From the IMG/VR virus record IMGVR_UViG_2537561575_000012: a stretch of 23,622 bases of DNA. The stretch is one strand, 5' to 3'. The notes under the pieces are model-generated. The model ran no database searches and was not told the DNA's origin. It saw only the letters and a program-made list of their open reading frames with translations. Every line of letters starts with the position of its first letter. The stretch's first letter is position 1. The DNA comes from a virus (Duplodnaviria > Heunggongvirae > Uroviricota > Caudoviricetes). This document shows, in pieces, positions 6,902 through 23,361 of the stretch. The position numbers were made by a program, and so were the translations under genes.

Positions 6902-7135
6902 ATGCGCATTGAAATAATGATCGATAAAGAGCAGAAGATTAGCCAGTCTACCCTGGACGCCCTTGAATCCGAGCTTTACCGCAATCTGCGCCCCCTGTAT
7001 CCCAAAACGGTAATTCGCATTCGCAAAGGTAGCTCTAACGGTGTGGAACTAACCGGACTGCAACTGGACGAAGAAAGAAAACAAGTGATGAAAATTATGC
7101 AGAAGGTGTGGGAAGACGACAGCTGGCTGCATTAA
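6902..7135 (+). CDS. dinI: DinI-family protein
   Basis: ORF 6830..7135 trimmed to ATG 6902 (GAGGTGA upstream); 77 aa. MRIEIMIDK...LDALESEL...KVWEDDSWL matches my memory of E. coli DinI (MRIEVTIAK...ALAGEL...ETWESADDW). Confidence 0.75.
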   Translation: MRIEIMIDKEQKISQSTLDALESELYRNLRPLYPKTVIRIRKGSSNGVELTGLQLDEERKQVMKIMQKVWEDDSWLH

Positions 7136-7329: not shown

Positions 7330-7348
7330 AAAGCGGGCAGGCGTGGCG
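7330..7348. other. Candidate cos (cohesive end) site
   Basis: GGCGTGGCGGGGATACGAG; the first 13 nt match my recollection of the 186/P2 cohesive ends (GGCG[T/A]GGCGGGGAAAGCA...). Lies between the replication side and the portal side, as in P2/186. Confidence 0.45.
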
Positions 7349-7510
7349 GGGATACGAGCGCGCGTTAAGCCATATAAGAGTTATATATTGATTTGATTGC
7401 TGGACATACATACAGTATCGCTCTATCATCTAATAAATCTTAGGGTATTTGACAATGTTTGGATAAAATGGAACCTAACTTATTCATAATCCGCTAAACA
7501 GGGATGTCAG

Positions 7511-8425
7511 ATGCCATACCAATTGGTAGAGCTTAGCCCCGTAGCTAACGATCTTGAACAGTTAGGAACCAAAGAGAAGTTTTGGTTCTATTTCTCCGAT
7601 GACACTGTAAATTTGCAGTTGTTTAAGTACTCTAGGCCAGGTACTGGCGAGCATTGGTCTGAAAAGTGTGCTGCTGAGTTATGTCATTTGCTTAACATTC
7701 CACATGCTAGCTATGATTTGGCGCGATACAATGGTCGATTCGGTGTGGTGACTCAGAATATCATTCCATCTGGTTTCCGGATGGTAATGGGAAATGAAGT
7801 GCTTCACAGTTCGACATTCGATTATCCTGGGCCTTTACAAGCCGGGGAAAAGCCGGTAAGGGTCAGAGAACACACTGTCACAAGGGTCTTGGGTTGTTTA
7901 GATAGGGAATCTATCAAGCCTCCTCCGAGTGTATATGATCTAACCGGGCTAAATGCAGCAGATGTATTTTGTGGATATTTGATGCTCGATGCACTTGTGA
8001 GTAATCAAGATCGCCACCATGAAAATTGGGCAATCATGCTTAACAATGAAACTGGTGAGCAGTTTTTGTGTCCAACATACGATCATGCCGCTAGTTTAGG
8101 AAGGGAGATGTTAGATGATGAGCGTAACGAACGGCTTAATACTAAAGATAAAAATCGACAAATCCCATGTTTTGTAAGAAAAGCTCGCTCTGAGCTATTC
8201 AAAGCAAAAACTGATAAAAAGCCCTTGCTGACTGTTGAAGCATTTCAACATGCAGTTGAAGGGAGAGTTGCCGCTCGCGACCATTGGTTAGGTAAGTTGA
8301 GCGTTTTAACAGAAGATTCCATTACAGATGTGTTTAACCAAGTGCCTTCATCGTGTATATCCGACAGTGCACGTAGATTTGCAACGTTAATGGTAATGGA
8401 AAATCGCAGAAGGTTACTAGAATGA
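7511..8425 (+). CDS. HipA-like Ser/Thr kinase, C-terminal catalytic domain only (HipT-like)
   Basis: 304 aa; G-x-x-E-K loop LGTKEKF (aa 18-24), catalytic-loop-like SNQDRHHENWA (aa 164-174) and YDHAAS (aa 190-195) parallel HipA motifs; no HipA N-terminal domain; AGGGA before the ATG; stop overlaps the next start (ATGA at 8422-8425). Confidence 0.7.
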   Translation: MPYQLVELSPVANDLEQLGTKEKFWFYFSDDTVNLQLFKYSRPGTGEHWSEKCAAELCHLLNIPHASYDLARYNGRFGVVTQNIIPSGFRMVMGNEVLHSSTFDYPGPLQAGEKPVRVREHTVTRVLGCLDRESIKPPPSVYDLTGLNAADVFCGYLMLDALVSNQDRHHENWAIMLNNETGEQFLCPTYDHAASLGREMLDDERNERLNTKDKNRQIPCFVRKARSELFKAKTDKKPLLTVEAFQHAVEGRVAARDHWLGKLSVLTEDSITDVFNQVPSSCISDSARRFATLMVMENRRRLLE

Positions 8426-9162
8426 CTAATACAAACTCCGTTTACGTCGCATGGCAGGCACCAGATACCAGAGACTGGCATGTTGTTGGTAACTTGCAAG
8501 AGCGCAAATCGGGGTATGTTTTCAGGTATACCAAAGGTGCTCTTAAATCTTCTAAATTTACAAAGTTTAGCGGCATGAGTGATGTTCGTGAAACTTATGT
8601 ATCGGAAGAATTGTTTCCTCTTTTTAAAAATCGCCTTTTATCACCGAGACGTCCAGAGTATCCGAGTTTCATTAAATGGCTTGGATTTGAAGAAGATAAG
8701 GTAAATCCTATCGATATTCTTGCTCGCTCGGGAGGCTTACGAAGCACTGATCAGCTGCAGATTTTCAAAAAAATTGATTTTGATTCTGATGGTAACTTTG
8801 AGCATTTTTTCTTCTTACATGGACTTGGTTACTTGAATAGCTTAGCTAATGCTCGTGTATCTGAATTGAAACCGGGGCAAATTTTGCGTCTTTGCTTGGA
8901 TCTTCAAAATGAATACGATGGGGATGCTGTTGTCGTTCGTGCAGATAAACCAGCTGAAATCGTTGGTTACTGCCCTAGGTATTTAAGTAATGACATCAAG
9001 AAGATGTTATTGGATGATCCAAAATCAATCACTTTAACGGTCGAAAAGATTAGCGATGATGCTCCTCATAACTATCGGTTATTATGTAAATTATCAGGGG
9101 TACTAAGCCAAGCCTGTCAATCGACGCTGATTCCTCAAGATGAGTTTGAACCTATTGAGTAA
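8422..9162 (+). CDS. HipS/HipA-N-like domain fused to a C-terminal HIRAN domain
   Basis: 246 aa. N-terminal ~120 aa (VVGNL...YVFRY...LFPLFKNRLLSP...NPIDILARSGGL) resemble the HipA N-subdomain and HipS (LFPFFDGLIPEG...). C-terminal aa ~125-215 (ILRLCLDLQNEYDGDAVVVRADKPAEIVGYCPRYLSNDIKKMLLD) fit the HIRAN pattern. Confidence 0.6.
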   Translation: MTNTNSVYVAWQAPDTRDWHVVGNLQERKSGYVFRYTKGALKSSKFTKFSGMSDVRETYVSEELFPLFKNRLLSPRRPEYPSFIKWLGFEEDKVNPIDILARSGGLRSTDQLQIFKKIDFDSDGNFEHFFFLHGLGYLNSLANARVSELKPGQILRLCLDLQNEYDGDAVVVRADKPAEIVGYCPRYLSNDIKKMLLDDPKSITLTVEKISDDAPHNYRLLCKLSGVLSQACQSTLIPQDEFEPIE

Positions 9163-9171
9163 ATGAAGAAA

Positions 9172-9193
9172 AGCCACCAAACGGTGGCTTTTC
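9172..9193. terminator. Bidirectional rho-independent terminator between convergent genes
   Basis: agccacc-aaac-ggtggct hairpin (9172-9189) with a T-run after it and an A-run before it; sits in the 34-bp gap between the HIRAN gene stop (9162) and the portal stop (9197). Confidence 0.6.
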
Positions 9194-9196
9194 TTA

Positions 9197-10234
9197 TTAT
9201 GGGGCTATATCTAGCGAGTAGGTATCAAACCGTATCGCCTCCTTGCCAAGCCAATCATTCATCTCCTGTAATCGCTTTTGTAGTGGCATTAGCTCATTTC
9301 GGACGAATACACGGCTTGCCTTCTCCACATCCCCAAACCCCCCAACATTATTCGGCATAATCCCCATCATTTGCGGTGGCACACGGTGCGCTGCCATCAT
9401 GTCATCGCGGCTGACATTTTTGATATTCAGAAACTCATCCTTCGCCGCGACTTCTGACAATGGGATGATCTGAAGTCCGTCCTTTTTGCCGTTAGGCGAG
9501 TACATAAACAGATTGCGGAAGTTACCTGGTCCTTTGGCGCTTTTCATCGCGTTACGGAGGTTGTTTACATCCTCCTGGTTCTGCGCGGCGTCGGTCATGT
9601 ACATGATGAAGCCTGCATGACTGCCGTTAATGTAATACTTTCGACGGAACAGCGTGGCGGACTCGTTGAGCAGGGCTGACGGAATGGCAGAAAGATAACC
9701 AGGCAGGCCGTAGATCTCCTGGTTGATGTCCGGTTCCATCAGATGAAAAATGTTGCCTTTCGTGAACTGATACGGCTGTGTAGTCATGCCGTATTGCACA
9801 AACCAGTAGGTATCAAGGTCTAACCCGCGTCGGGTGTATTTTGCCAGTGCAGGCTCAAGGGCGATAACTTCACCGAAGCGGTTCGTGCGTTTCTCCAGGT
9901 AGGCGTTACCAAAAACCAGATAGTCCTGTACAAAACGCGAAAAAGCCTGCTGGCTGAGCAGCGGGTGAGGGATGTAGGTGCTGGTCAGAATGTTGCACTT
10001 CACTGCAATCGGTGAGCTGTGATGCACGGCGGCGCGGAAGGTTCGCGCCAGTCCGTCGAAACTCACAGGCGGCTCGTACCAACGATCCATCTGTACGCAT
10101 TCCACATAGTCCAGCAGTTCGCGGCGGTCCAGAACAGGAACGGGATCACCGAAGCTGAATGCTTCGGCTGAAGTCTGGCTTTTATGCTGGATCTGTTTCG
10201 TCGACGCAGCGCGGTTCTTCTTACTCTTTCCCAT
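9197..10234 (-). CDS. Portal protein (P2 gpQ-like)
   Basis: ORF 9197..10237 minus; start taken as ATG at 10234-10232, forming an ATGA overlap with the upstream terminase stop; about 345 aa, matching P2 Q in size and position. Confidence 0.75.
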   Translation of the reverse strand: MGKSKKNRAASTKQIQHKSQTSAEAFSFGDPVPVLDRRELLDYVECVQMDRWYEPPVSFDGLARTFRAAVHHSSPIAVKCNILTSTYIPHPLLSQQAFSRFVQDYLVFGNAYLEKRTNRFGEVIALEPALAKYTRRGLDLDTYWFVQYGMTTQPYQFTKGNIFHLMEPDINQEIYGLPGYLSAIPSALLNESATLFRRKYYINGSHAGFIMYMTDAAQNQEDVNNLRNAMKSAKGPGNFRNLFMYSPNGKKDGLQIIPLSEVAAKDEFLNIKNVSRDDMMAAHRVPPQMMGIMPNNVGGFGDVEKASRVFVRNELMPLQKRLQEMNDWLGKEAIRFDTYSLDIAP

Positions 10235-12000
10235 CAAAAAATCTCCACAATATTGCTGGTATTGGCGGACTCGCCCTGCAGCGGTTCGTTAAACAGTGCG
10301 TGCATTGTTGCCCAGGCCAGATCGGCATGGCTGGCTTCTTCGCTGCGGCTGGCTTCATAGGTCGGGCGGTTGCCACTGGCAGTGGTAGCGCGACGGATTG
10401 CCATAAATGACTGCGCAATGTCGGTGTGCCCGGCGTCAAACTCCAGACGGCGGTGGCTGATAATGTCGTAGGCCTTGAGTACCAGGGCGTTTTTAACGTT
10501 GGGGTTATAGACAAACTCCCTGACGGCAGGAAAAAACGCTTTCACGTTCTCGTAAACCCCGTGACCGACGCCGGTCGAGTCGATACCGATATAGGTCACG
10601 TTATACTGTTCGGTCAGTTTTTTGATGGCGTCAGCCTGGGCGCGGAAGTCCATCCCGCGCCACTGGTGACGCTCAAGAATGCGGAACTTACCACCCGGCA
10701 CGGCTGGCGGAGCCACCACCACGCATCCGGCACTGTCGCCGTTCTGCGTACCTTTTGCCGGGTCATAACCGATCCACACTTCGCGCCAGCCAAACGGGCG
10801 CAGGGCCAGTGCATGAAAGTCGGTCCAGACTTCCCAGCTGTCCACCATGCACGCCTGCAGTTCGCTGAGCGGGAACACGGACGCGAGATCGTCCACGAAC
10901 TCGCACATCAGCAGGTTCTGGTATTCGTCCGGGCTGTACTCCATGCGCAGCTGGTCGAGGTCGAACAGGTTACAGCCGCCGCGCACCGCATCTTCCACGG
11001 TGACTATCTGGCGGTATTGCCCGTCTGCGCACAGTAGGCCGGGGGCCAGATTGCTGTGGGACAGGTCGATGTCCACCTTGTCAGCTTTGTTGCGTCCACG
11101 GTTGAACAGCGCACCGGACCAGAACGGATAAGCACTGTGGGTCAGGCTGGATGGCGTGGAAAAATAGGTTTGTCGCCATTTCTTGTGAATAGCCATACCG
11201 GAAGCCACTTTGCGCAACTCCTGGAATTTCGGTATCCAGAAATATTCATCCAGATACAGGTTGCCGTGGTAACTCTGCGCCGTGCGGGCATTGGTGCCGA
11301 GGAAGTAAAGCGTGGCCCCGTTAGGAAGCACCATCGGATCGCCTTTCAGCTCCACCTCGACTTCTTTGGCGAAGTCGATGATGTACTGCTTAAAGACGTG
11401 AGCCTGTGCCTTACTGGCAGAAAGGAAAATCTGGTTACGTCCGGTAAGCAGGGCGTCAATCAGGGCTTCACGGGCAAAGTAAAAGGTCGCGCCGATCTGG
11501 CGTGACTTCAGCAGGTTGCGGATGCGGTTGGTTTTTCCGGCTTCCCACCAGTGGCGCTGGTAGTTGAACATGGAGGAATGGAAGATTTCTTCCAGTTTCT
11601 CTATCTGTTCATCGGTGAAAACATTCTTTTCCGGCTGACGGCGCGGGCCTTTGTTGCGGTTGGCGACGTTAGGGTTTAAGTCGGCTTCGTTGCCGCCATT
11701 GTTAAACTTGCCGATCCGCGCGTGGCGCTCCGACTGGCGCGCCAGCAGGTCAATTTCTTTGAAATCTTTCCCTTCTTTGTGCTCCTTCATAATGAGCTGG
11801 CAGTAACGTGCGGCGGTGGTGAGCTGCATCTGATCCAGCGGCCCATAGTCACCCCACTTGTCGCGTTTCTTCCAGCTGTGAACGGTTGCAACTTTCTCGC
11901 CCAGCATTTCAGCAATGCGGGCTACGCGGTATCCCTGAAAGTACAGCAGCATGGCCTGCCGACGGGGATCGAGATCTGCGGGTGTCAGTGTGGTGTTCAT
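10234..12000 (-). CDS. Terminase large (ATPase) subunit (P2 gpP-like)
   Basis: 588-aa ORF on the minus strand, divergent from the scaffold gene; N-terminal HTH-like segment; size and position match P2 P (about 590 aa). Confidence 0.75.
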   Translation of the reverse strand: MNTTLTPADLDPRRQAMLLYFQGYRVARIAEMLGEKVATVHSWKKRDKWGDYGPLDQMQLTTAARYCQLIMKEHKEGKDFKEIDLLARQSERHARIGKFNNGGNEADLNPNVANRNKGPRRQPEKNVFTDEQIEKLEEIFHSSMFNYQRHWWEAGKTNRIRNLLKSRQIGATFYFAREALIDALLTGRNQIFLSASKAQAHVFKQYIIDFAKEVEVELKGDPMVLPNGATLYFLGTNARTAQSYHGNLYLDEYFWIPKFQELRKVASGMAIHKKWRQTYFSTPSSLTHSAYPFWSGALFNRGRNKADKVDIDLSHSNLAPGLLCADGQYRQIVTVEDAVRGGCNLFDLDQLRMEYSPDEYQNLLMCEFVDDLASVFPLSELQACMVDSWEVWTDFHALALRPFGWREVWIGYDPAKGTQNGDSAGCVVVAPPAVPGGKFRILERHQWRGMDFRAQADAIKKLTEQYNVTYIGIDSTGVGHGVYENVKAFFPAVREFVYNPNVKNALVLKAYDIISHRRLEFDAGHTDIAQSFMAIRRATTASGNRPTYEASRSEEASHADLAWATMHALFNEPLQGESANTSNIVEIF

Positions 12001-19847: not shown

Positions 19848-20445
19848 TCTGCTGCCACCGGGTTCAACACCACTGGAGCGCCGACTGGCGCAAACCTGCA
19901 GCGGGATTTCTGATCTGCAGGTGCCGCTTCGTGACTTGTGGAATCCGGCAACCTGTCCGGTCAGTTTCCTGCCTTATCTCGCCTGGGCGTTCTCTGTGGA
20001 TCGCTGGGACGAGGGCTGGACAGAAAGCGTCAAGCGCCAGGTGGTGAAGGATGCTTTTTATATTCATCAGCATAAAGGGACCACCAGTGCCGTGCGGCGG
20101 GTGGTGGAGCCGTTCGGATTCCTGATCCGCATTATTGAGTGGTGGCAGACCGGAGAAACACCGGGCACGTTTCGCCTGGATATCGGCGTGCAGGACCAGG
20201 GCATCACTGAAGATACCTATCTGGAACTTGAGCGACTGATAAGCGATGCCAAACCATGTAGCCGCCACATGATCGGCATGTCCATCAATCTGCAGACCAG
20301 CGGCCCGCATTGGGTGGGAGCCGCCAGCTATCTTGGCGAAGAAATCACGATCTATCCGTATATCAACGAAACGATTATTTCCGGTGGCACCGCGCATGAA
20401 GGCGGGGCGGTCCATGTTATTGATACAATGAGAGTGAATCCATGA
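19840..20445 (+). CDS. Baseplate/tail protein I (P2 gpI-like)
   Basis: 201 aa; overlaps the J stop and the H start (ATGA at 20442-20445). Confidence 0.7.
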   Translation: MNSLLPPGSTPLERRLAQTCSGISDLQVPLRDLWNPATCPVSFLPYLAWAFSVDRWDEGWTESVKRQVVKDAFYIHQHKGTTSAVRRVVEPFGFLIRIIEWWQTGETPGTFRLDIGVQDQGITEDTYLELERLISDAKPCSRHMIGMSINLQTSGPHWVGAASYLGEEITIYPYINETIISGGTAHEGGAVHVIDTMRVNP

Positions 20446-21677
20446 GCACAAAATTTTATACCCTGCTGACGGATATTGGCGCGGCGAAACTTGCCAGCGC
20501 CGCCGCGCTCGGTGTGCCGCTAAAAATTACCCATATGGCGGTGGGCGATGGCGGTGGAGTATTGCCAACGCCGGACGCAAAGCAGACGGCACTGGTAAAT
20601 GAGAAACGCCGGGCTGCGCTGAATATGCTTTATATCGACCCGCAGAACAGCAGCCAGATTATTGCCGAACAGGTGATCCCTGAAAACGAGGGCGGTTGGT
20701 GGATACGTGAAGTGGGCTTGTTTGATGAGTCCGGGGCATTGATTGCCGTGGGCAACTGCCCGGAAAGCTATAAGCCGCAACTGGCTGAAGGTAGCGGGCG
20801 CACTCAGACCGTGCGCATGGTGCTGATTACCAGCAGCACGGACAATATCACCCTGAAAATCGACCCTGCTGTAGTGCTGGCAACCCGCAAGTATGTGGAT
20901 GACAAGGCACTGGAGCTGAAGGTGTACGCGGATGATCAGATGGCAAAACATCTTGCCGCACCGGACCCGCATTCACAGTACGCGCCAAAAGCCAGCCCGA
21001 CATTTACCGGAACCCCCAAAGCGCCAACGCCAGCGGCGGGGAATAATACCACGCAGGTTGCGACCACTGCGTTTGTACAGGCGGCACTGACGGCCCTTAT
21101 TAATGGTGCGCCAGCCACGCTGGACACGCTGAAAGAAATAGCCGCAGCCATTAACAATGATCCGAATTTCAGTACCACCATTAACAATGCGCTGGCACTA
21201 AAAGCACCGTTGTCGAGTCCGGCACTCACCGGAACGCCAACAGCCCCCACGGCGGCGCAGTCGGTCAACAATACACAGATTGCCACTACGGCTTTTGTGA
21301 AATCGGCGATTGCAGGAATGGTGGGTTCTGCACCTGCTGCACTGGATACACTGAACGAACTGGCGGCGGCACTGGGGAATGATCCGAACTTTGCCACGAC
21401 AATGCTTAATGCGCTGGCAGGTAAACAACCGCTGGACAATACGCTTACCAATTTGAGTGGAAAGGATGTAGCTGGTCTTCTCACATACCTTGGTTTGGGA
21501 GAAGGCTCTGCATTACCTGTTGGTGTCCCTGTTCCGTGGCCTTCAGCCACTCCGCCGACAGGCTGGCTGAAATGCAACGGTGCGGCTTTTTCTGCCGAAG
21601 AATACCCGGAACTGGCAAAGGCTTACCCGACAAATAAATTACCTGATTTACGCGGTGAGTTTATTCGTCACCTGTAA
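20442..21677 (+). CDS. Tail fibre protein H, constant region plus shared segment, in its current orientation
   Basis: 411 aa; conserved N-terminus MSTKFYTLLTDIGAAKLA; two internal fibre repeats; the last 57 aa before ...GEFIR are encoded by the left inverted repeat; the ORF stops 2 codons after the repeat (HL-stop). Confidence 0.75.
   Translation: MSTKFYTLLTDIGAAKLASAAALGVPLKITHMAVGDGGGVLPTPDAKQTALVNEKRRAALNMLYIDPQNSSQIIAEQVIPENEGGWWIREVGLFDESGALIAVGNCPESYKPQLAEGSGRTQTVRMVLITSSTDNITLKIDPAVVLATRKYVDDKALELKVYADDQMAKHLAAPDPHSQYAPKASPTFTGTPKAPTPAAGNNTTQVATTAFVQAALTALINGAPATLDTLKEIAAAINNDPNFSTTINNALALKAPLSSPALTGTPTAPTAAQSVNNTQIATTAFVKSAIAGMVGSAPAALDTLNELAAALGNDPNFATTMLNALAGKQPLDNTLTNLSGKDVAGLLTYLGLGEGSALPVGVPVPWPSATPPTGWLKCNGAAFSAEEYPELAKAYPTNKLPDLRGEFIRHL
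20991..21434 (+). repeat. Two tandem ~74-aa tail-fibre repeat units within H
   Basis: aa 184-257 and 258-331 share P.FTGTP.APT.....N.TQ.ATTAFV..A......AP..LDTL.E.AAA..NDPNF.TT..NALA.K.PL, a phage tail-fibre repeat pattern. Confidence 0.5.
21478..21503. other. Candidate recombinase crossover site (hix/gix/pix-like), left
   Basis: TTCTCACATACC-TT-GGTTTGGGAGAA: two 12-bp half-sites in imperfect dyad (10/12) around a 2-bp core, similar to hixL as I recall it (TTCTTGAAAACC AA GGTTTTTGATAA); at the outer end of the left inverted repeat. Confidence 0.45.
21490..21668. repeat. Left arm of a ~179-bp inverted repeat
   Basis: Reverse complement of 23183-23361; I saw three synonymous mismatches in spot checks; both arms encode the same 57 aa (GEGSALPVGVPVPWPSATPPTGWLKCNGAAFSAEEYPELAKAYPTNKLPDLRGEFIR). 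Confidence 0.75.
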
Positions 21678-21871
21678 ATATCCCCCTGCCGATATCTTTC
21701 AGCAATACCAATTATTGTGTTGTTGCATCGTACGATAATGCACGGTCAGGTGTGTCAACAATGGTTAGTTTTGCAGCATTGCCTGTTTCACCATCGCAAT
21801 TTTCCCTGATGTCATCTGTGACTGAGCAAGGAATAAATCCTTTTGCTTACTGGATTGCTTTTGGAGATTGA
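21659..21871 (+). pseudogene. Possible frameshifted remnant of the plus-orientation fibre variable segment
   Basis: A 70-codon open frame (no stops from 21659 to TGA 21869-21871) shifted by one nucleotide from the H frame; it ends 3 nt before the Tfa start (TGA TAA ATG). Only internal ATG (21761) or GTG (21752) starts, so it is absent from the ORF track. Confidence 0.3.
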
Positions 21872-21874
21872 TAA

Positions 21875-22294
21875 ATGGACAGATACTTCTATTCACAAAA
21901 AGAAAATGGTTTTTTTACCGATTTAAATAAAGCACCTTCAGATGCTGTTGAGATAAACACGGATGAATGGCTGTTACTACTGGATGGTCAGGATAATGGC
22001 ATGAAAATAGTCAGCAATCAGGAGGGATATCCGGTTTTGACAGAGCAACCACCTTTATCAAAAGAAAACCTTATTGCATTGGTGGAGTTGAAAAAAAGAA
22101 AACTTATTAATGAAGCCAACGAGCACATGAACAGCAGACAATGGCCAGGTAAAGCGGCTATTGGTCGTCTGAAAGGTGAGGAACTGGCGCAATATAATTT
22201 ATGGCTGGATTATCTGGACGCACTGGAACTGGTTGATCCCTCCAGTGCTCCAGATATTGAATGGCCTACGCCTCCGGCAGTTCAGGCCAGATGA
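21875..22294 (+). CDS. Tail fibre assembly protein (Tfa/U-like), plus orientation
   Basis: 139 aa; C-terminus ...DYLDALELVDPSSAPDIEWPTPP parallels the C-terminus of the convergent minus-strand paralogue; 3' ends overlap by 29 nt. Confidence 0.65.
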   Translation: MDRYFYSQKENGFFTDLNKAPSDAVEINTDEWLLLLDGQDNGMKIVSNQEGYPVLTEQPPLSKENLIALVELKKRKLINEANEHMNSRQWPGKAAIGRLKGEELAQYNLWLDYLDALELVDPSSAPDIEWPTPPAVQAR

Positions 22295-22868
22295 CATCCG
22301 GTGCGGTGCTGGTATCTGTTGCCGTCACCGCGTCAATGTAATCCAGCGCAGCGTTAAGTCGGGCGGTTTCTGCCTGCGTCAGATTCCGTCCGGCCTGTAA
22401 TTTCAGTTGAATCAGACTGATAGAAGCCATTGCTGTATCAATCAGCGACTGGCGCTGTGCTTCTGCTGCATCTACTACGGCGCTATGCTGTGCCTCGGTA
22501 TCCGTCACCCATTTCTCACCATCCCATTTATCGTATGGCGTTAACGGGGCGATAGTGGTTGTATTATCAGGGTAATCACCCGGTGCTGTGATTTCTTTTG
22601 ATTCTCCTGTTTCGGTGCTAAAGACAATTTCACCGCGATGGTCTGGTACATATTCCCATGAGTTAAAATCTGCAGAGCGGCAGATTGCATAACCAGCTTT
22701 GTAGGTGCCTGGAGCATCTAAACAGGAATATGCCGGAATGCCGACACCAACAGCAAGATATTCAGTTGAAGCTGAAATATACTCCCGACTCATGACGTCA
22801 AAGTTATAAACAGTAATTTCTCCTGCCATAGTGGCAATTAATTCACTGTTTAATTCTGCGTTATTCAT
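22266..22868 (-). CDS. Tail fibre assembly protein (Tfa'/U'-like), minus orientation
   Basis: 200 aa; C-terminus ...DYIDAVTATDTSTAPDVIWPELP; its start overlaps the stop of the alternative fibre segment (TAATG). Confidence 0.7.
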   Translation of the reverse strand: MNNAELNSELIATMAGEITVYNFDVMSREYISASTEYLAVGVGIPAYSCLDAPGTYKAGYAICRSADFNSWEYVPDHRGEIVFSTETGESKEITAPGDYPDNTTTIAPLTPYDKWDGEKWVTDTEAQHSAVVDAAEAQRQSLIDTAMASISLIQLKLQAGRNLTQAETARLNAALDYIDAVTATDTSTAPDVIWPELPEA

Positions 22869-23361
22869 TATGCAGCCCTCACAATATAGTTAAAAGCGAC
22901 ATTTCGTGGGCGTGTTTCATTCGCACCTGCATGTTTAGTCGTTGCCGCAACAACACCACCCTCTGTAATAGCCGGGTTGGGAATTGGGTAATTATCGAAG
23001 TCAATGGCCGGAGACAGGGGCGTGATTTGTTTTAAAATCGTGGTGCCTGTAAAACTTTCCAGAGTCTGGTCGTTAGTTCGTGAAGTCCAGATTCCCCAAT
23101 AGTGGTTATGACTGACAATCGCACCGTCCTGAAGCGTTAATAATCCCCTTCCGTTATCCCCTCCACGTCCGTCATCCCAGCCACGAATAAACTCACCGCG
23201 TAAATCAGGCAATTTATTTGTCGGGTAAGCCTTTGCCAGTTCCGGGTATTCTTCAGCAGAAAAAGCCGCACCGTTGCATTTCAGCCAGCCTGTCGGCGGG
23301 GTGGCTGAAGGCCACGGAACAGGGACACCAACAGGTAATGCAGAGCCTTCTCCCAAACCAA
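22868..23361 (-). CDS. Alternative tail-fibre C-terminal segment (Hv'), fused to H only after inversion
   Basis: Minus-strand ORF 22868..23356; begins inside the right inverted repeat with the same 57 aa as the end of H, continues ~104 aa further (GWDDGRGG...NVAFNYIVRAA), then stop; no credible independent start. Confidence 0.65.
23183..23361. repeat. Right arm of the ~179-bp inverted repeat
   Basis: Reverse complement of 21490-21668 with a few synonymous differences. Confidence 0.75.

Follow-up and report, generated by a model that had tools for sequence, protein, structure and literature searches.

The 23,622-nucleotide stretch of viral DNA analysed here (the window; IMG/VR record IMGVR_UViG_2537561575_000012, all positions counted from its first letter) comes from a P2/186-like prophage and carries, between its candidate cohesive-end (cos) site and its portal gene, a two-gene cassette that is a member of the already catalogued hipIN family, PDC-M03 in PADLOC, and so is not new in kind. 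The first gene, hipI, encodes a small kinase of the HipA superfamily and the second, hipN, a HipS-like domain fused to a HIRAN domain. The cassette is accessory cargo of the cos-proximal P2 hotspot, and we propose, at what we judge to be even chances, that it serves the prophage as a switch for defence or exclusion, with HipN holding HipI in check until the HIRAN domain meets foreign DNA 3′ ends.

Family membership is clear from both proteins. PDC-M03A matches HipI over residues 2–304 (E = 2.1e-122) and PDC-M03B matches HipN over residues 1–244 (E = 6.8e-93), end to end and in adjacent genes, which answers the PADLOC check suggested in a first-pass annotation made from the sequence alone. Together with the matches to PHROGs (E = 2e-184 for hipI and 3e-136 for hipN), whose two families are both labelled ‘unknown function’, these scores show that neither gene is a chance open reading frame (ORF); an NCBIfam search with the cassette proteins gave nothing useful. 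The name hipIN was given by Gerdes, Baerentsen and Brodersen (mBio 2021; PMC8262856) in a purely bioinformatic study that treated it as a putative toxin–antitoxin module, proposed HipN as the antitoxin with a HIRAN domain that may bind single-stranded DNA, and did not discuss the P2 hotspot location. This is the phylogenetic survey with HIRAN-linked kinases that the first-pass annotation had mentioned.

HipI is a small HipA-type kinase

The Pfam HipA_C model reaches HipI below its gathering threshold (20.7 versus 30.5 bits, E = 3.6e-4), many HipI homologues have a precomputed PF07804 match, and Couple_hipA is likewise sub-threshold on HipN (E = 0.014), so that both assignments rest on predicted structure and family context and not on Pfam. 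In the fold comparison the HipI model ranks closest to CtkA (22.4), followed by the HipT proteins of Legionella (16.4) and Escherichia coli O127 (14.9) and by HipA (14.7), with PI4-kinase II, Fam20 and CotH placed below HipA, and sequence and profile searches of the PDB with the kinase (phmmer, hmmsearch) returned CtkA only (E = 8e-4). The match to the HipA and CtkA folds agrees with the first description of gene 1 as a HipA kinase core without the HipA N-domain.

The residues of an active kinase (catalytic Asp, Asn, Mg-binding Asp and ATP-binding Lys) are all present in HipI, in a Gly-rich loop E16-x-x-G19-T20-K21-x-K23, at K39, in the catalytic loop SNQD167RHHEN172, where DRHHEN occupies residues 167–172, and at D191 of a YD191HAA motif. 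In an hhalign alignment that is not significant alone and is consistent with the fold match, D167, N172 and D191 fall opposite D309, N314 and D332 of HipA. K21, K23, K39, E47, E51, D167, N172 and D191 are invariant across 61 relatives from many phyla, and HipI is, judging from sequence and predicted structure, most likely an active-type protein kinase of the HipA superfamily. Its Gly-rich loop is nevertheless unlike those of HipA and HipT: at the position of HipA Ser150 and HipT Ser57, as placed by alignment of the G-x-x-E-K motif and not by superposition, HipI has Glu16, and 60 of the 61 relatives also have Glu there. Ser or Thr occurs in this loop, in HipI and its relatives, only directly after the Gly. 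HipI therefore has no counterpart of the autophosphorylatable serines of HipA (S150) and HipT (S57, S59), and its canonical autophosphorylation site appears to be missing.

The fold comparison also bears on what HipI might phosphorylate. Its fold is common to PI4-kinases, Fam20 and CotH, its UniRef name is ‘phosphatidylinositol kinase’ and its partner carries a domain of a type that binds DNA 3′ ends, all of which would suit a non-protein substrate such as a nucleic-acid end presented by HIRAN, a lipid or a nucleotide. We rate this as the least probable of the explanations considered here, because the structures nearest to HipI, those of CtkA, HipT and HipA, belong to protein Ser/Thr kinases, because HIRAN in HLTF structures buries the 3′-OH that it recognizes, and because we know of no precedent for DNA phosphorylation by a fold of the HipI type.

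HipN joins a HipS-like domain to a HIRAN domain

HipN's HIRAN domain is recovered by Pfam at 51.3 bits against a threshold of 24.7 (E = 1e-13, residues 127–228). Of the three profiles that the first-pass annotation had offered as a check, this one thus came back above threshold for the present sequence, whereas HipA_C and Couple_hipA did not. Searches of the PDB with HipN (phmmer, hmmsearch) gave nothing significant, and the domain assignments were settled by fold comparison, in which the HIRAN domain resembles 3k2y (13.7), HLTF (11.0) and Rad5 (9.5), while the N-terminal domain resembles 7vkb_B (10.4), 7ab3_B (10.3, with 97 of 100 residues aligned) and the HipA N-subdomain (8.5). The original reading of gene 2 as a HipS-like domain fused to HIRAN is borne out by these matches; a fold search of a viral structure library found isolated HIRAN domains only. 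The predicted model of HipN is of good quality (predicted local distance difference test score 88.4, predicted template modelling score 0.83), and the latter value indicates that the two domains pack as a single unit.

The most conserved motif of the HipN N-terminal domain, L64-F-P-L-F-x-N-R71, aligns with V57-F-N-F-F-D-N-L of E. coli HipA (hhalign, not significant alone), and N163-E-Y165-D166-G-D-A169 of the HIRAN domain aligns with GNQYDDNA of 3k2y. The NxYD motif also resembles NNPYD of HLTF, the motif by which that protein holds the 3′-OH.

The cassette is accessory cargo of a P2 prophage hotspot

The carrier is recognizable as a P2/186-like prophage by its genes for the CI repressor, CII, Fil, a Dam methylase, the replication endonuclease A, portal, terminase and capsid. 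The exact HipI and HipN proteins are each encoded on at least 1000 public contigs, which come from E. coli, Salmonella and other Enterobacteriaceae. Among 5,426 complete E. coli genomes the cassette is found in 21, at no less than 99.2% identity and on the chromosome in every case, and RefSeq names the products of the identical stretch in these 21 genomes ‘HipA domain-containing protein’ or ‘hypothetical protein’, followed by ‘HIRAN domain-containing protein’. The flanks, on the other hand, are found in 1,277 of the 5,426 genomes, the 21 cassette carriers included, so that about 98% of related prophages with the same flanks are cassette-less; 60 phage records match the flank only, and P2 and 186 also lack the cassette. 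These counts exclude the possibility, raised at the outset as one that would overturn a cargo assignment, that the two genes are a conserved core pair of this phage lineage.

The same slot holds other genes in sister phages, a Ymh-domain gene in vB_EcoM-813R9 and a TIR-domain gene in 500465-1, and the identity of the window to both phages runs through cos before it stops at 7364. The interval between gpA and gpQ is a P2 defence hotspot in which several systems have been validated (Rousset et al., 2022; PMC9122126), and the cassette shows two marks of a defence system, namely location in a hotspot or island and variability between close relatives. Its placement as variable cargo near cos therefore stands as first described, as does its assignment to the hotspot that houses old and tin; the exact slot does not, since in P2 itself cos separates this slot from tin and old, whose place is between gene A and cosR.

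In several E. coli genomes the cos region is separated from hipI by about 980 bp of additional sequence (for example locus L002, NZ_CP042893.1, 3037–4390), which encodes on the opposite strand a hypothetical protein of 176 residues (WP_000246368.1) and suggests that the slot gains cargo stepwise. In a genome that holds the identical prophage (locus L001, NZ_CM151382.1, 20–1790), the CI repressor gene has beside it, immediately to the left of where the window starts, a restriction gene with a GmrSD domain and a gene with a HEPN domain; together they probably form another defence-cargo locus of this prophage, one that the window does not cover.

Boundaries and gene structure of the cassette

The cargo is a 1.8-kb AT-rich insert (about 41% G+C against 50–60% in the flanks) that starts 6 bp past cos and ends at the terminator of the portal operon, where P2 and 186 have only about 140–160 bp between cos and terminator (Table 1). 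The first-pass annotation had placed the pair between cos and the portal gene, and the match to 186 cos and the RefSeq portal annotation confirm that position. The candidate cos site lies inside a stretch conserved among P2-like phages and is followed directly by GCGCG, as in phage 186; a search with the P2 cos sequence allowing up to three mismatches did not find it, and the site was confirmed instead against the annotated 186 cos. At the other end, the hairpin downstream of hipN corresponds in position and sequence to the tQ/tW terminator when aligned with the annotated tW of 186 and tQ of P2, and was not flagged by a simple terminator scan.

Table 1. Features of the cassette and its flanks in the window (strand ‘.’, not stranded).
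Feature	Position	Strand	Description	Basis
DinI-like gene	6902..7135	+	Conserved left flank of the hotspot, outside the cassette	Pfam DinI, E 1.3e-22; RefSeq annotation of identical prophage
Candidate cos (cohesive-end) site GGCGTGGCGGGGATACGAG	7340..7358	.		15/19 bases identical to annotated phage 186 cos
Cargo left junction and cassette-specific upstream region	7365..7510	+		Identity to other P2-like phages ends at 7364
hipI	7511..8425	+	Small HipA-superfamily Ser/Thr kinase (most likely), 304 residues, without HipA N-subdomain 1	ORF list
hipN, HipS-like domain	8422..8775	+	Residues 1 to about 118	Invariant LFPLFxNR motif, R77
hipN, HIRAN domain	8800..9105	+	Residues 127–228	N163-x-Y165-D166-x-x-A169 and G182-Y-C-P-R186 motifs
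hipN, whole gene	8422..9162	+	246 residues; translationally coupled to hipI	PDC-M03B, E 6.8e-93; ORF list
Hairpin AAAAGCCACC-AAAC-GGTGGCTTTT	9169..9192	.	In the gap that separates hipN from the convergent portal gene; marks where the cargo ends on the right
Portal gene (P2 Q / 186 W homologue)	9197..10237	-	Conserved right flank, outside the cassette	RefSeq annotation of identical prophage; ORF list

The two genes overlap in an ATGA at 8422–8425, with the hipN ATG (8422–8424) lying over the hipI TGA (8423–8425), and the ORF list and sequence uphold both the gene coordinates and the translational coupling as first reported. A Shine–Dalgarno-like AGGGA (7500–7504) stands six bases ahead of the hipI ATG, and a promoter scan gives, by consensus match only, a promoter-like site TGGACA-17-TATCAT at 7401–7429. 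The cassette runs opposite to the late operon. It has an upstream region of its own, and expression in the lysogen is probable.

The kinase comes first in the pair and there is no HipB-like helix-turn-helix (HTH) partner, both as initially described: RefSeq annotates no HTH gene in the interval from the DinI-like gene to hipI, nor any gene other than the pair from the DinI-like gene to the portal gene, and the ORF list holds no plausible candidate for either. An operator-like inverted repeat was looked for upstream of hipI and none was found. The cassette therefore lacks the HTH autoregulator and the operator that characterize type II toxin–antitoxin systems of the HipBA kind. A hidden RNA or third gene was considered and rejected, as the one Rfam match was far below threshold and lay over the terminator only, and there were no operator-like repeats. 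That match, from a permissive scan, was to the Brucella small RNA 120 family BSnc120 (minus strand, 9148–9250; 36.4 bits against a gathering threshold of 114, E = 2.8e-6 in a small search); it spans the tQ-like terminator, reaches over the portal gene's 3′ end and is probably a chance match driven by the terminator.

HipI and HipN are paired across phyla and associated with defence loci

The HipN family is large and spans many phyla: its search yielded 1,226 representatives of clusters formed at 50% identity, nearly all of 240–260 residues and matched over their full length. In a locus survey that took one genome per species, returned 231 HipN relatives and kept 80 loci, 70 of the 80 have a HipI-type kinase directly upstream in the same orientation, again across many phyla and mostly with a 4-nucleotide overlap; protein searches likewise place at least 36 kinase and HipN clusters on common contigs. 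Gerdes et al. (2021; PMC8262856) in addition describe HipL, single-chain fusions in the order kinase, HipS-like domain, HIRAN. None of six longer HipN relatives that we checked for a kinase fusion was a HipL, so the existence of such fusions rests on their study. One HipN relative of 408 residues (P0282) has a C-terminal extension of about 180 residues with a faint match to pPIWI_RE_REase (E = 0.0017) and is a possible HipS–HIRAN–nuclease fusion.

The neighbourhoods of these genes are rich in restriction functions. Among 130 neighbouring ORFs from 33 loci there were 11 type I restriction specificity subunits, 11 type I methyltransferases and five HsdR proteins; type I restriction subunits border about a third of the loci sampled, and two loci are P2-like prophages. 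The pair is also found on cyanobacterial and actinobacterial plasmids. A 14-kb temperate element of Vibrio cyclitrophicus, assigned to the Vinavirales and with a PM2-like capsid gene, carries a HipA-like and HIRAN pair with a 4-nucleotide overlap that adjoins the integrase (locus L086, PQ189359.1, 10953–12646), and thus the same cargo occurs in a virus realm unrelated to P2.

Two further explanations can be weighed against this distribution. Since the cassette immediately adjoins cos and HIRAN binds DNA ends, it might serve the lytic cycle of its own carrier, for example in host takeover or in processing at cos. We consider this very unlikely given that nearly all related prophages with the same flanks do without it, that the pair also sits in chromosomal restriction loci that belong to no phage, as well as in a virus realm unrelated to P2, and that it is oriented against the late operon. 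Somewhat less remote, if still quite improbable in our view, is a plain toxin–antitoxin addiction module that stabilizes the prophage or its cargo slot and has no anti-phage role. HipA-family pairs are classical type II toxin–antitoxin modules, Gerdes and colleagues placed hipIN among the putative ones (PMC8262856), and the family does travel on plasmids and other mobile elements. The missing DNA-binding autoregulator and operator-like repeat argue against addiction, however, as do the DNA-end-binding domain, which would have no obvious role there, the strong association with restriction operons and a validated defence hotspot, and the HipL fusions, which cannot work by differential antitoxin decay.

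A proposed DNA-end-responsive switch and its main rival

The defence or exclusion switch that we propose would work as follows. HipN would bind HipI through its HipS-like domain, the detached counterpart of HipA N-subdomain 1, and would keep the kinase off, by analogy with the action of HipS on HipT. Injection, replication, recombination or degradation of DNA by another phage would give rise to free 3′ ends, and their engagement by the HIRAN domain would lift the restraint on HipI. The freed kinase might then phosphorylate an essential host or phage protein, perhaps an aminoacyl-tRNA synthetase by analogy with HipA and HipT, with the result that growth is arrested and the superinfecting phage fails. 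An abortive-infection or exclusion function of this kind is suggested by the pairing in 70 of 80 loci, the rarity of the cassette among prophages with its flanks (21 of 1,277), a slot otherwise filled by TIR or Ymh genes, the restriction-operon neighbours, the Vinavirales cargo and the validated HipAD/DS-6 system (see below).

Several observations weigh against this proposal. The N-subdomain of HipA is part of the active enzyme and not an inhibitor, and it is unusual for a labile antitoxin to be encoded after the kinase and in translational coupling to it. Conservation of Y165 and D166 of the HIRAN domain is confined to the gammaproteobacterial clade in which the window falls, with D at position 166 in 34 of 81 sequences and T in 44. 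In 10 of the 80 HipN loci there is no kinase within 8 kb. These kinase-less copies have either hsdS and hsdR on their two sides or, as neighbours, proteins of the SNF2/SWIM, UvrD-like, Schlafen-AlbA2/ATPase or HD-domain kinds (they include loci L064, 1087–5075; L076, 6120–12491; L034, L062, L082, L045, L026 and L051), and indicate that HipN can act without HipI; the HipS-like–HIRAN didomain may function alone or with other effectors. HipS is an inhibitor of the kinase in the HipBST systems of E. coli and Legionella, and a phosphomimetic S57D substitution lets HipT escape neutralization by HipS (PMC10627512); with an invariant Glu16 at the equivalent position, HipS-style inhibition may not apply to HipI. 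Finally, like the first-pass annotation, which knew of no functional characterization, we found no functional study of hipIN, HipL or PDC-M03 in the literature searched, outside which lie Brenes and Laub (2025) and Kieffer et al. (2025).

In the main rival, HipN is not an antitoxin but an obligatory activating or targeting subunit, and the kinase is made complete by its HipS-like domain just as HipA is by N-subdomain 1. HIRAN would then bring the holo-kinase to DNA 3′ ends, where DNA-bound proteins of phage or host, for example in replication, recombination or packaging, would be its substrates; such a complex is compatible with defence, and HipI alone would be non-toxic. It would be in keeping with the replacement of the regulatory Ser by E16, an acidic residue at the position where one blocks HipS inhibition in HipT, with a kinase-first and translationally coupled gene order that fits a stoichiometric complex, with HipL fusions that hold the domains together permanently, and with the presence of the segment homologous to the HipS-like domain in active HipA. 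Yet the sole studied split pairs of HipS and kinase, the HipBST systems of E. coli and Legionella, use HipS as an inhibitor, and kinase-less relatives of HipN exist. We regard this co-subunit arrangement as unlikely on balance, though likelier than addiction, service to the carrier's own cycle or a non-protein substrate.

Returning to the proposed switch, a bolder formulation is that HipIN is a DNA-end-triggered kinase switch in which HIRAN detects free 3′ DNA ends that an invading phage makes and the rigidly attached HipS-like domain turns on a kinase whose regulatory loop is hard-wired by a Glu in place of the phospho-Ser. We put this forward tentatively, as a possibility that falls well short of even chances. 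If true, it would be the first bacterial immune sensor that reads DNA ends via HIRAN and answers with protein phosphorylation, and the kinase-less HipN proteins of restriction operons would be the same sensor wired to other effectors.

What makes the cassette interesting is its mechanism, together with two details described here: the Glu that is invariant in the regulatory loop, and the HipN copies that stand in restriction operons without a kinase. If a defence role were shown, bacterial immunity would gain a DNA sensor based on HIRAN and a second effector kinase of the HipA type, and it would become clearer how split HipA kinases are regulated without HipB. The HipN family is widespread, in two unrelated kinds of temperate virus, on plasmids and in restriction operons, and the E. 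coli prophage copy is a convenient native example, being short and self-contained, with its own upstream region and a hotspot whose neighbours include validated defence systems.

A putative invertible tail-fibre segment elsewhere in the window

Far from the cassette, two inverted repeats of 179 nucleotides that are 98% complementary (21490–21668 and 23183–23361) enclose a 1.5-kb segment (21669–23182). Upstream of it is a tail-fibre gene with a C-terminal Collar domain (20442–21677), accompanied by a tail-fibre assembly gene on the plus strand (21875–22294); on the opposite strand, inside the segment, are a second assembly gene (22266–22868) and an alternative C-terminus with a Collar domain (22868–23356). 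The repeat-bracketed segment resembles the invertible switches of host range of the Mu G or P1 C type, and its invertase would be past the end of the window.

Comparison with known systems

Among described systems the cassette is closest to hipIN, which is defined by a small HipA-type kinase without N-subdomain 1, a downstream gene with HipS-like and HIRAN domains, the kinase in first place and no HTH protein. All of these features are found here and no difference was seen among those compared, in an assignment made by architecture and not by phylogeny. PDC-M03 is a ‘guilt by embedding’ prediction, one of 145 candidates that were not experimentally validated (Payne et al., 2024, preprint 10.1101/2024.01.29.577857, supplementary file 8). 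Both proteins match its models throughout, and the embedding in type I restriction operons from which it was predicted also appears in our survey, whereas the carrier in the present case is a prophage hotspot. HIRAN genes have been listed before in P2-hotspot arrangements (Rousset et al., 2022, PMC9122126; their Table S5 names ‘HIRAN’ 46 times) and a Vibrio ‘HIRAN-kinase’ in Table S6, while the table of tested systems in that study has no HIRAN entry. A 2025 paper in Nucleic Acids Research (NAR) reported operons of HipA and HIRAN genes beside diDNase genes, and called the link uninvestigated. P2 old and tin and the other gpA–gpQ cargo share with hipIN the inter-gene hotspot next to cos, but their proteins are unrelated to HipI and HipN, and old and tin lie between gene A and cosR where hipIN lies between cos and the portal terminator.

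HipBA of E. coli K-12 has the catalytic Asp, Asn and Asp that align with those of HipI, and N-subdomain 1 of its HipA resembles the N-terminal domain of HipN; HipA is, however, a single chain with an HTH antitoxin and an operator, and autophosphorylates Ser150 where HipI has Glu16. The HipBST systems of E. coli O127:H6 and Legionella include a HipB, which the cassette lacks, and here the HipS-like domain is fused to HIRAN and the gene order is reversed; their HipT carries autophosphorylated Ser57 and Ser59 in a Gly-rich loop that has Glu in HipI, and the sequence similarity between the two is undetectable by HMMER. CtkA (JHP0940) of Helicobacter pylori (PDB 3akj) has the fold closest to HipI and is described as a stand-alone pro-inflammatory kinase, a HipS or HIRAN partner being unmentioned in the entry description. 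Finally, HipAD/DS-6 is a two-gene system in which a HipA-family kinase protects E. coli from phage and requires its catalytic residue to do so (DeWeirdt et al., 2026; PMC13092281); its partner is a DUF3037/DUF1829 protein, in place of the HipS–HIRAN didomain that accompanies HipI.

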